Source of the DNA: a virus
Taxonomy: Duplodnaviria > Caudoviricetes
Length of the DNA: 44,111 bases
Virus record (IMG/VR): IMGVR_UViG_3300034990_000013
Coordinates: 1-44,111 of that record
Strand: one strand, 5' to 3'
Shown here: positions 260-6,495 of the stretch, piece after piece
Layout: every line of letters starts with the position of its first letter
How positions within the stretch are numbered: position 1 is the first letter of the stretch
Program-made: the position numbers and the translations under genes
Notes under the pieces: model-generated
Database searches by the model: none
Told to the model about the DNA's origin: nothing
The model's input: only the letters and a program-made list of their open reading frames with translations

Positions 260-1044
260 ACAGATACATCAAATTTAATGAATGGATGATGTTTATAATT
301 ACAAAGCGTTATATCTTCGAATTTCATAACTAAAACAGATTTATTTTTTAGAAAAACTCTTGGTAAAGGATATGGTTTTCTATCCAATTGTTTTTTTAAA
401 CCATCGACATGGTTTAAATATATATGCGCATCGCCAATAGTGTGTATGAATTCACCAGGAAAAAGGTTACACTCCATAGCGAACATTTTCAAGAGCAAAG
501 CATAACTAGCGATATTGAAAGGTACTCCAAGAGCGATATCAGCGCTTCTTTGATACATATGTAGATCTAAATAGTCGTCTCTGACATAAAATTGAAACAT
601 CATATGGCATGGTGGAAGTGACATTTCCTCAATTTCAGCAACGTTCCAAGCACTGACAATAATTCTACGTGAATCTGGGGTATTTTTTATCATATCCAAA
701 GCGTTTTTTATTTGGTCAATATGATAATTTTTATAATGATACCAGTTGCGCCATTGGAAGCCGTATACAGGCCCTAAATACCCTTCTTCATCGGCCCAGG
801 CATCCCAGATAGGTGTATGCTGAGTTAGATTGTCGTGTATATTTGTTGAACCAGATAGCATCCAAAGCAATTCCCTGACAACCGCATCAAATAAAACTTT
901 TTTTGTGGTGACAAGCGGGAAGCCGTCTCGTAGATTATACCGGGATTGTGTCCCAAAAACAGAGATTGTTCCGGTTCCGGTTCTATCGGTTCTTTTTTCA
1001 CCGTTTCTTAAAACGTGTTCAACCAAGCTAAGATACTGTTTCAT
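256..1044 (-). CDS. thyA: thymidylate synthase
   Basis: [26 protein letters not shown] and GDAHIYLNH motifs; start taken at MKQYL. Confidence 0.98.
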
Positions 1045-2023
1045 CTTTTTTCCTTTCATCACAAATTTTTAATAAAATTTCTTTATATTTTTTCCAAAAA
1101 TTTAAAGCCCATATATCCATTGATTCGATTTTATCATCGGAAAAATTTTTCCAATCTTCAAAAGAATGTGATTCGCACCCTATTTCCATATGCTCGTCAA
1201 AAATAAAAACTACCCAAGTTAAACCTGTAATTTTTATTGGTGTTTTATTAATAATAAAATCGTTTCTTTTAGTTTTATAAAAAACAGTTTTATAAAAAAC
1301 AGCTCTGGAAAGGTCAGCTCTGGAAAGGTTAGCTCCGGAAAGGTTAGCTCTGGAAAGGTCAGCTCTGGAAAGGTTAGCTCCGGAAAGGTCAGCTCCGAAA
1401 AGGTCAGCTTCGGAAAGGTCAGCTCTGGAAAGGTTAGCTCTGGAAAGGTCAGCTCTGGAAAGGTTAGCTCCGGAAAGGTTAGCTCTGGAAAGGTCAGCTC
1501 TGGAAAGGTTAGCTCCGGAAAGGTCAGCTCCGGAAAGGTTAGCTCCGGAAAGGTCAGCTCTGGAAAGGTTAGCTCTGGAAAGATTAGCTCCGGAAAGGTC
1601 AGCTCTGGAAAGGTTAGCTCCGAAAAGGTTAGCTCCGGAAAGGTCAGCTCCGGAAAGGTCAGCTCCGAAAAGGTTAGCTTCGGAAAGGTTAGCTCCGGAA
1701 AGGTCAGCTCTGGAAAGGTTAGCTCCGGAAAGGTTAGCTCTGGAAAGGTCAGCTCTGGAAAGGTTAGCTCCGGAAAGGTCAGCTCCGGAAAGGTTAGCTC
1801 CGGAAAGGTCAGCTCCGAAAAGGTTAGCTTCGGAAAGGTTAGCTCCGGAAAGGTCAGCTCCGAAAAGGTTAGCTTCGGAAAGGTTAGCTCCGGAAAGGTC
1901 AGCTCCGAAAAGGTTAGCTCCGAAAAGGTTAGCTTTGGAAAGGTTAACTCTTTTTCCTTTTTTTTCACCTTTTAACCATTTCTTATGTTTTTCTAAAATT
2001 TCATTCAATTGTTCTTTATTCAT
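1028..2023 (-). CDS. pentapeptide-repeat protein with C-terminal IGC...W domain
   Basis: about 43 A(D/N)L(S/F)(G/R/E) repeats; start at MNKEQL after AAAGGTGA. Confidence 0.92.
1301..1945. repeat. 15-bp tandem repeat encoding the pentapeptide units
   Basis: agct(c/t)(t/c)g(g/a)aaaggt(c/t) repeated about 43 times. Confidence 0.95.
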
Positions 2024-2044
2024 GTTTTCACCTTTTTTTATAGT

Positions 2045-2081
2045 TTTGCGGATATTTCTTAATATAAGAAATATCCGCAAA
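2045..2081. repeat. perfect 17-bp inverted repeat (intergenic hairpin)
   Basis: tttgcggatatttctta-ata-taagaaatatccgcaaa. Confidence 0.85.
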
Positions 2082-4432: not shown

Positions 4433-4461
4433 ATTATACCACAAACAAATAACAAATTCAA
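4433..4461 (-). promoter_or_regulatory. sigma70-type early promoter
   Basis: TTGAAT-N17-TATAAT, extended -10, T-tract upstream. Confidence 0.85.
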
Positions 4462-4799: not shown

Positions 4800-4811
4800 G
4801 AAAAAAAATAG

Positions 4812-4841
4812 CCGGCTTCTATGGGGCTGGGCTTGGGGACT
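4812..4841 (-). ncRNA. truncated copy of the 5' half of the twister-sister-like RNA
   Basis: 25 of 30 nt identical to 5843-5872; the 3' half is replaced by CT plus a U-tract. Confidence 0.6.
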
Positions 4842-5150: not shown

Positions 5151-5411
5151 TTATTTTTGTATTTTATCTACGGCAGTAAAAATTTTAGGTGATAAAGAAA
5201 GTTTATTGTTTAAATTCTCAGATTTCATACTGATTAAAATATTTTTAATTTTCAATTGTTCACCCTTAGTTAAATATATTCCTAAAAGTAGTTTGTCAGA
5301 GTTTTCAACGATTTTTAAACAAACATAACCGATAAAATTAATATCACAAGATTTCATAATACTGCTTATTTCTGATATTGCATTATTAAGATTTGTGTTA
5401 AGTTTTTTCAT
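5151..5411 (-). CDS. hypothetical early protein
   Basis: GAGGG RBS after an ACAACAAAC leader. Confidence 0.75.
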   Translation of the reverse strand: MKKLNTNLNNAISEISSIMKSCDINFIGYVCLKIVENSDKLLLGIYLTKGEQLKIKNILISMKSENLNNKLSLSPKIFTAVDKIQK

Positions 5412-5429
5412 TTCACCCTCTGGTTTGTT

Positions 5430-5480
5430 GTCCGACCCCGCCCTAAGGCGGACGCACAGGGCTTAACGGACCCCTGTTTT
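5430..5480 (-). ncRNA. pistol ribozyme-like core lacking P1
   Basis: AAAACAGGG-GUCCG-UUAAG-CCCUGU-GCG-UCCGCC(UUAG)GGCGGG-GU-CGGAC reproduces the pistol order P2/UUAAG/pseudoknot strand/GCG/P3/G|U/P2. Confidence 0.6.
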
Positions 5481-5531: not shown

Positions 5532-5594
5532 TTAGCAGTTGCACGGATTAAGCCTTTTACAACCACAATTTAAGCATTCATAATAAGTTTTCAT
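5532..5594 (-). CDS. 20-aa Cys-rich micropeptide (candidate)
   Basis: MKTYYECLNCGCKRLNPCNC with GGAAGG upstream. Confidence 0.4.
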   Translation of the reverse strand: MKTYYECLNCGCKRLNPCNC

Positions 5595-5790
5595 TCATTT
5601 CCTTCCAATCTATATCTTCCCCAGTCAAAACATTTGATAGAAAAATTGTTTCTCCACCGAGGCGATTATCATTAAACTCCCGAGCAAGCTTCTTAGCCTT
5701 TTCCAGTCCTTGAACGTCATGGATTGTCACGCCACCGAATTCATATGATACGACAATATGATACAGATTTTTGAATTCTTCAAAGGTCAT
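5578..5790 (-). CDS. hypothetical early protein
   Basis: start at MTFEEF after AGGAGG; the longer ORF call runs into structured RNA. Confidence 0.8.
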   Translation of the reverse strand: MTFEEFKNLYHIVVSYEFGGVTIHDVQGLEKAKKLAREFNDNRLGGETIFLSNVLTGEDIDWKEMNENLL

Positions 5791-5810
5791 TTCTTCCTCC
5801 TGTGTTGGTT

Positions 5811-5871
5811 GTCCTGTAAGCGCCGCAGATGGTGGTCTGGCCCCGGCTTTCACGGGGCAGGGCCTGGGGAC
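5811..5871 (-). ncRNA. twister-sister ribozyme-like RNA (three-way junction type)
   Basis: GUCC-CCA-GGCCC-UGCCCC-GUGAAAGC-CGGGGC-CAGA(CCACCA)UCUG-CGGCGCU-UACA-GGAC; GC-rich island in AT-rich intergenic DNA; all stems pair. Confidence 0.75.
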
Positions 5872-6182
5872 TATTTATAAAGCTTTCTCAGTGCTGTGAT
5901 GTTCGATTTTTTTTCGCCGCGATGCACTGAAAAAGATTTGTACACGTTCCGGCATGATTCGCGGTAATGAAAATGGACTTCTAAATCACCTTTTTTTCCG
6001 ACAACTGAATCACCCTCCCGAGTGACTTCAAATTCGAGCGAAGTAAGAAAATCATCAACCTCATTTTGTCGACGATTTTCATTCCAACGGCGGCCGCTGG
6101 CATTACTTTGAGGGCTCCAAAAATAAGTGTTCGCTGTTAAAATTTCGGGTTCTGTGATTTGATTTGTTGTCTGTGTTGTCAT
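5871..6182 (-). CDS. hypothetical early protein
   Basis: start at MTTQTT after AGGAGG and a (CAA)n leader. Confidence 0.85.
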   Translation of the reverse strand: MTTQTTNQITEPEILTANTYFWSPQSNASGRRWNENRRQNEVDDFLTSLEFEVTREGDSVVGKKGDLEVHFHYRESCRNVYKSFSVHRGEKKSNITALRKLYK

Positions 6183-6465: not shown

Positions 6466-6495
6466 ATTATATCACCAATAGATATACAATTTCAA
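6466..6495 (-). promoter_or_regulatory. sigma70-type early promoter
   Basis: TTGAAA-N18-TATAAT, extended -10 TGA. Confidence 0.85.

Follow-up and report, generated by a model that had tools for sequence, protein, structure and literature searches.

Twister-sister ribozymes are described in a three-way form (Rfam RF02681; PDB 5T5A, as cited in PMC5660989 and PMC6707401) and in a four-way form (PDB 5Y87; Zheng et al. 2017, PMC5660989). How they cleave is disputed: the accessible text of PMC5660989 favours G5, whereas that of PMC6707401 favours a cytosine together with a metal, modification of C6 reducing activity the most. In the four-way construct, according to the accessible part of PMC5660989, C62 is flipped out and C62U, C62A and C62G are all active, the activity of C62U being pronounced; A63U is dead, A7U behaves like the wild type, and G5C and G5U are nearly dead, G5C being also described as abolishing activity. 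The same text describes G5 as not absolutely conserved, and the available sections of PMC11620745 report that neither form is sensitive to mutation of the cytosine at the cut. The pistol class (RF02679) is defined by stems P1–P3 and a pseudoknot, disruption of P1 greatly reducing activity (Harris et al. 2015, PMC4604425, in its available part), and contacts of A19–A21 to P1 are described in the accessible part of PMC6101554. The processing of polycistronic phage transcripts is a published, unproven role for such ribozymes (PMC6765202, accessible text).

The window analysed here, 44,111 bases long, spans an entire virus record that carries direct terminal repeats and is rated 100% complete; it represents an uncultured phage encoding a terminase, an SU10-type capsid protein, a DNA polymerase, a primase, a helicase and a thymidylate synthase. 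Among the sequencing runs listed, matching DNA was found in one, a wetland metagenome that may be the source sample, and RNA runs gave no match; the pieces from this DNA run do not cover the twister-sister described below. Searches of viral contigs with the large terminase, and of annotated phage records with the capsid protein and the ribozyme DNA, returned zero related phages. On the minus strand, from 6495 to about 2000, small orphan genes form an array with repeated leaders. A sigma-70-like promoter (6466..6495, minus strand), recognized by a consensus match only (11 of 12 positions, extended −10), is predicted to drive the early operon; near-copies at 5138-5109 and 4799-4770 (repeat D2) and a fourth at 4461 are likewise consensus matches only. 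Within 6495-4427 (minus strand), the four near-identical promoters and the repeated ACAAC/GGAG leaders punctuate the array. Three of its genes, none assigned to a family, concern us here: the upstream early gene (the 6182 gene; 5871..6182, minus strand, 103 amino acids), the downstream early gene (the 5790 gene; 5578..5790, minus strand, 70 amino acids) and the 5411 gene (5151..5411, minus strand, 86 amino acids). The 6182 gene has 13 other homologues of 92–137 amino acids; most are about 100 amino acids long and the longer form in record G006 is fusion-like, and on these grounds truncation of this gene by the ribozyme was rejected. Its own leader has neither promoter nor ribozyme. A search of viral contigs with the 5790 protein found zero relatives.

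Between the upstream and the 5790 gene lies a three-way twister-sister ribozyme of 61 nucleotides (5811..5871, minus strand), assigned from its Rfam match, family covariation and fold. The sequence-only reading had proposed this class, and both the sequence it wrote for 5871-5811 and the start inside the upstream stop codon are correct: the TAG at 5873-5871 ends with the element's first G, so that the stop overlaps P1. The comparison with Rfam that it called for gives 38.0 bits against RF02681 (cut-off 34) over the whole model, positions 1–81, with an E value of 6e-5 for the window against all families, and this is the sole above-cut-off Rfam match within the window. With our own three-way model, in which the window row is included, a second full copy was absent from the window. 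P1 (5871-5868/5814-5811), P2 (5864-5861/5824-5820), P4 (5858-5853/5845-5840, enclosing the conserved loop 5852-5846) and P5 (5839-5836/5829-5826) are all able to form around the junction, and the internal loop L1 occupies 5867-5865/5819-5815. P4 is perfect and no conserved core base is altered; P5 has just 4 bp, with a compensatory A-U at its base. Neither the shortness of P5 nor that of the 5′ side of L1, which lacks one nucleotide compared with relatives, is mentioned in the sequence-only reading. The conserved residues C6, A8, G9, G29, U30, G31, A33, A34, G35, C37, G59, C60, U61 and A63 are present; the list of conserved L1 and SL4 residues and their roles comes from the four-way structure in the accessible part of PMC5660989. 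The predicted cleavage step is U62|A63 in four-way numbering (5817..5818, minus strand), by homology to C62–A63 in the same source, and, as the sequence-only reading had placed it, a cut at U5818|A5817 would leave 27 nucleotides before the ATG at 5790.

Compared with the described three-way form (PDB 5T5A, as cited above), the element has the same three-way junction, a P2 with the extruded G59, the conserved P4 loop, the G27–C14 pair, the catalytic-candidate cytosine, an A at +1 and the phage intergenic position before a ribosome site. Unlike that form, it has U for C at −1 (a common state), C at positions 5 and 7, C-A for U-U 3′ of the cut, an L1 that is one nucleotide short on its 5′ side and a 4-bp P5. 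With the four-way form (PDB 5Y87) it shares the conserved L1 and SL4 residues and the cut position; it has no P3 hairpin and no G5, whereas the four-way construct needs G5. The element is a new member of its class in the usual setting.

Relatives were collected by pattern scans, which gave 59 viral-contig loci and at least 133 metagenome-contig loci (27 of 64 parts scanned). Strict filtering for the three-way form left 168 matches, 89 of them distinct; this step dropped the window locus itself, four-way members, loci with a P4 of less than 4 bp and loci with less than 12 nucleotides of flank. An alignment of 55 rows (the window and 54 relatives) has changes on both sides of the pair in 4 of 6 P4 pairs and 4 of 5 P5 pairs, bearing out the compensatory stem changes reported earlier, and its covariation score was reached by none of 500 shuffles. 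Invariance of P2 is uninformative, being fixed by the search pattern, and P1 lies outside the covariation count.

The U at the cut site had been singled out as a notable variant, a status that the relatives do not uphold. Position N62 is C in 69 of the 89 distinct relatives, U in 17, G in two and A in one; three relatives with U|A (L001, L002 and L205) score 57.4–60.4 bits against Rfam. By comparison with these relatives and with the published activity of C62U, U|A at the cut site is ordinary and tolerated. Because U is common at N62 and C62U is active, the U-to-C revertant suggested earlier would be uninformative. Natural members with a G|A or A|A cut step also occur (L020, L027, L048; L237). 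Two further loci, L192 and L236, resemble chimeras of two paralogues of the same phage, with P1 broken and its strands derived from different paralogues.

The L1 loop, described earlier as a CCA/UACA variant, is partly ordinary and partly a true oddity. Among the 89 relatives the loop is 4/4 in 50, 4/5 in 31, 4/6 in one and unassigned in seven. C stands at N6 in 87 and at N7 in 13, and 26 lack G5. The presence of G5 follows loop size (50/50 of the 4/4 loops and 8/32 of the longer ones), although these sequences are related and the counts are not independent; a Fisher test of this association is inflated for the same reason and is not read as a probability. Sixteen relatives form a recurrent natural subtype without G5, with the loop C-C-N-A / U-N-A-C-A; in this 4/5 subtype with C-A after the cut, G5 occurs in 0/16 and U62 in 7/16, again among related sequences. 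Judged by its loop, the window copy is a member of this subtype minus one C. That missing C is the oddity: the loop falls one C short of that of every relative whose loop could be assigned. Position 5 is C, which speaks against activity in view of the loss caused by G5C in the four-way construct, and C6 is retained (here 5867, corresponding to C7 in three-way numbering). The best P1 (4 bp) leads to a 3/5 loop, which none of the 89 relatives prefers; the other registers are a 4/6 loop with a P1 of 3 bp, as in L259 (1/89), or a 4/5 loop with a P1 of 2 bp. A search for other copies with four Cs returned two loci, neither of them a ribozyme. No paper on the G5-less subtype was found in the literature searched by listings; its members score well on the Rfam model, and the original alignment may already include them.

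A second element lies 330 bases further along the array, before the 5411 gene: a pistol-type core without P1 and without the A-rich linker (5431..5477, minus strand), recognized by a sub-cut-off Rfam match, relatives and covariation. In a permissive Rfam scan, pistol (RF02679) matches 5470-5431 with 29.1 bits, below the cut-off of 34.5 and over model positions 24–68 only. The pseudoknot strands (5477-5472/5461-5456), P2 (5470-5467/5434-5431) and P3 (5452-5437) are present, all on the minus strand, and the predicted cut, G5436|U5435, would leave a 24-nucleotide leader on the 5411 gene. On the upstream side of P2, one base separates it from the six-base pseudoknot partner, too tight a spacing to accommodate P1 or the A-linker; both the P1 stem and A19–A21 are absent from 5477-5431, and the upstream DNA is unrelated among relatives. 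With the pistol class of Harris et al. 2015 (PMC4604425, available part) the element shares P2, P3 and the six-pair pseudoknot, together with the core A32, the G33–C41 pair, G40, G42 and the G|U cut step. Unlike that class, it has no P1 and no A19–A21, and one nucleotide links the 5′ strand of its pseudoknot to P2. The window copy has a minimum free energy (MFE) structure other than the pistol fold, in folding without pseudoknots.

This arrangement recurs. A pattern demanding the P1-less spacing gave 49 viral loci and 50 matches, of which 20 (16 distinct) form all three helices (pseudoknot, P2 and P3), against a mean of 0.015 and a maximum of one in 200 shuffles. In 18 of the 20 helix-forming copies a stop triplet lies within 4 nucleotides upstream, reading frame aside, and in 19 a ribosome site and start lie within 21–65 nucleotides. 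In 17 aligned rows, which were selected for pairing, both sides change in 4/4 P2, 4/5 P3 and 3/6 pseudoknot pairs. Rfam recovers 11 of 18 P1-less copies at E values up to 0.5, all from model position 23–24 and one above the cut-off, and the three canonical pistol controls all score 51–72 bits. On sequence grounds the P1-less form of pistol is a conserved variant; it departs from its class in a defining feature and keeps the catalytic core. The window copy is thus not a canonical member and, by analogy, we infer that it would work like a pistol. A scan of genome contigs for the P1-less pistol gave one match, which fails the helices. No paper on the P1-less form was found by listings or in the accessible text of PMC10085705.

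Several observations were made alongside these. A first, loose pistol pattern was rejected because its matches were mostly chance, with four canonical-looking by eye in 120 of about 2700 loci. One contig carries five matches to the P1-less pattern (L324-L327; L324 truncated). A 151-nucleotide contig of run X1 covering 5425-5480 is a second P1-less pistol relative, with six differences in 56 nucleotides; its upstream DNA is different and contains, by eye, a small hairpin plus a stretch of As, which might be a rearranged P1.

What the two elements would produce resembles what lies behind the promoters. The predicted post-cleavage leader of the 5790 gene (5791..5817, minus strand, 27 nucleotides) carries the repeated ACAAC tract (repeat D4) and the GGAGG site of that gene, an ACAAC/GGAG layout common to five leaders in the region. 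The predicted 24-nucleotide leader of the 5411 gene likewise has an ACAAC tract and a purine-rich ribosome site. Behind promoters, the distance from −10 box to start is 30–36 nucleotides. Across the twister-sister relatives, a ribosome site and start lie 13–57 nucleotides past the cut in 78 of 89 (median 30). Our main reading, to which we give a probability of roughly 60%, is that the twister-sister cuts U5818|A5817 of the early mRNA and that the P1-less pistol acts likewise for the 5411 gene. An early polycistronic mRNA would be transcribed from the 6495 promoter, and the twister-sister would cleave itself at U5818|A5817, right after the upstream stop, giving the 5790 gene a 27-nucleotide leader with a 5′-OH end. 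For both RNAs the chemistry of the class would be a Mg2+-dependent attack of the 2′-O yielding a 2′,3′-cyclic phosphate and a 5′-OH; catalysis in the twister-sister would, going by the class, likely involve a hydrated metal together with the conserved C6 cytosine (here 5867). The pistol-type core at 5477-5431 would likely give the 5411 gene its 24-nucleotide leader in like manner. The ribozymes would thus stand in for promoters, providing each gene with a standard unstructured ACAAC/GGAG leader of about 25–30 nucleotides, and such a standard 5′ end would likely uncouple the translation and decay of each gene from those of the preceding one.

Two related records, G003 and G006, bear on the organization of the array. 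Both carry counterparts of the upstream gene (87% over about 208 nucleotides) and of the pistol-type element (88%) and have no twister-sister, so that modularity is visible. The twister-sister and the P1-less pistol occur together in none of five other records, three of them incomplete. In G003 and G006 (L371:1-610), the 6182-gene homologue is a longer open reading frame followed directly by the P1-less pistol, past which part of the 4739 gene of the window recurs out of frame; the arrangement suggests a deletion between GGAGG words.

The principal alternative concerns whether the twister-sister still works. Its target fold has −21.8 kcal/mol against −23.5 kcal/mol for the MFE structure, a gap of 1.7 kcal/mol, and the latter differs in the register of P2, which has a probability of 0.08 in the ensemble (median of the relatives, 0.25). 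Up to 120 nucleotides of flank do not displace P1, P4 or P5, and pairing between the P5 loop and the ribosome site was not seen in the context folds. The element is a true family member at the weak edge: its Rfam score is the lowest of 22 copies scored (the other 21 hits, from 20 chosen loci, have 40.4–62.9 bits), its fold per base is the second-weakest of 90 (weaker in just one of 89 relatives), and its P5 has 4 bp where 79 of 89 relatives have at least five. These values, together with a loop register unique against 89 relatives, would fit a genuine twister-sister in decay, slow or inactive through loss of one L1 C and a P5 mismatch, with the 5790 gene read from uncut message; the absence of the twister-sister from the related phage, which has the upstream gene, points the same way. 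Against this, P4 is perfect, the conserved core is unchanged and the A-U at the base of P5 is compensatory; the 4/6 loop with a 3-bp P1, which occurs in L259, could be adopted; and about 94% of tested natural twisters, a different class, are active despite imperfections (PMC11662667, accessible part).

A relic elsewhere in the window bears on decay in both directions. At 4800..4840 (minus strand) a copy of the ribozyme 5′ half runs into an end resembling a terminator hairpin, with a U run. Its positions 4840-4812 match the ribozyme 5′ half in 24 of 29 ungapped positions (best of 200 shuffles, 19/29), and its end resembles the terminator at 4513-4486 (20/29); it may possibly be a recombinant at a shared 7-nucleotide word. 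The relic has no P5, no 3′ strand of P2 and no cut site, and its existence suggests that copies decay in this genome. It also retains the same four-C run, which argues that the short loop is real and old, probably predating the duplication, and so counts against decay of the window copy. Weighing these points, we consider decay rather unlikely and the window twister-sister, as far as its sequence allows a judgement, probably active.

A different objection accepts cleavage and reverses its effect: the 5′-OH product would be degraded 5′ to 3′, lowering or timing the expression of the downstream early genes. The fate of 5′-OH ends differs between hosts, some of which leave them intact while others degrade them. 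Degradation by RNase follows cleavage by glmS (accessible text of PMC6765202), and the extended −10 promoters and GGAGG sites would fit a nuclease-bearing Bacillota host, an assignment that neither the terminase (in viral contigs) nor the capsid protein (in annotated phage records) could provide. The leaders made by ribozymes, however, copy those made by promoters without giving up the strong ribosome site, a pattern suggestive of selection for translation of the product, and we regard destabilization as quite improbable. Less probable still is a slip of the assembly in the C run (5869-5866) hiding an ordinary 4/5 loop like that of L042 and L205: relatives with the same P1 (L042 and L283) do have five Cs, but the independent relic at 4840 carries the identical four-C run.

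Returning to cleavage at both sites as the preferred reading, a stronger form of it, that both elements cut and that, within a single phage operon, two reduced ribozymes from separate classes take the place of promoters, is put forward tentatively, at somewhat less than even odds. Its standing as a variant system rests on the neighbouring P1-less pistol and not on the twister-sister flagged at the outset, whose short loop is a single case and may be either tolerated or a sign of decay. Pistol activity is considered to depend strongly on P1 (PMC4604425, available part), yet here is a covarying natural family without it. If true, a natural pistol of 47 nucleotides without P1 would be the smallest of its class and would overturn P1 as a defining stem; its activity would change the class definition and supply a compact tool. 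If the twister-sister cuts with neither G5 nor an unpaired position 5, the proposed catalytic guanine would be dispensable, leaving C6 and a metal as the universal core. Natural three-way members split on G5, this copy being the most reduced case seen, and the disputed mechanism thereby becomes directly testable. The array is also well suited to testing why phages place ribozymes between early genes.

Finally, three features of the surrounding region were noted. A 20-codon open reading frame at 5594-5532 (minus strand) overlaps the stop of the 5790 gene and has four cysteines in two CxxC-like pairs; it is possibly a truncated zinc-binding peptide. The segment 6540-6900 is AT-rich and gene-free, separates the early operon from the terminase genes and is rich in copies, both direct and inverted, of a 9–14-nucleotide motif (repeats D6, D7 and D10), making it a candidate origin or packaging region. 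At 1028-2080 (minus strand) lies a pentapeptide-type repeat gene of about 40 tandem 15-nucleotide units.
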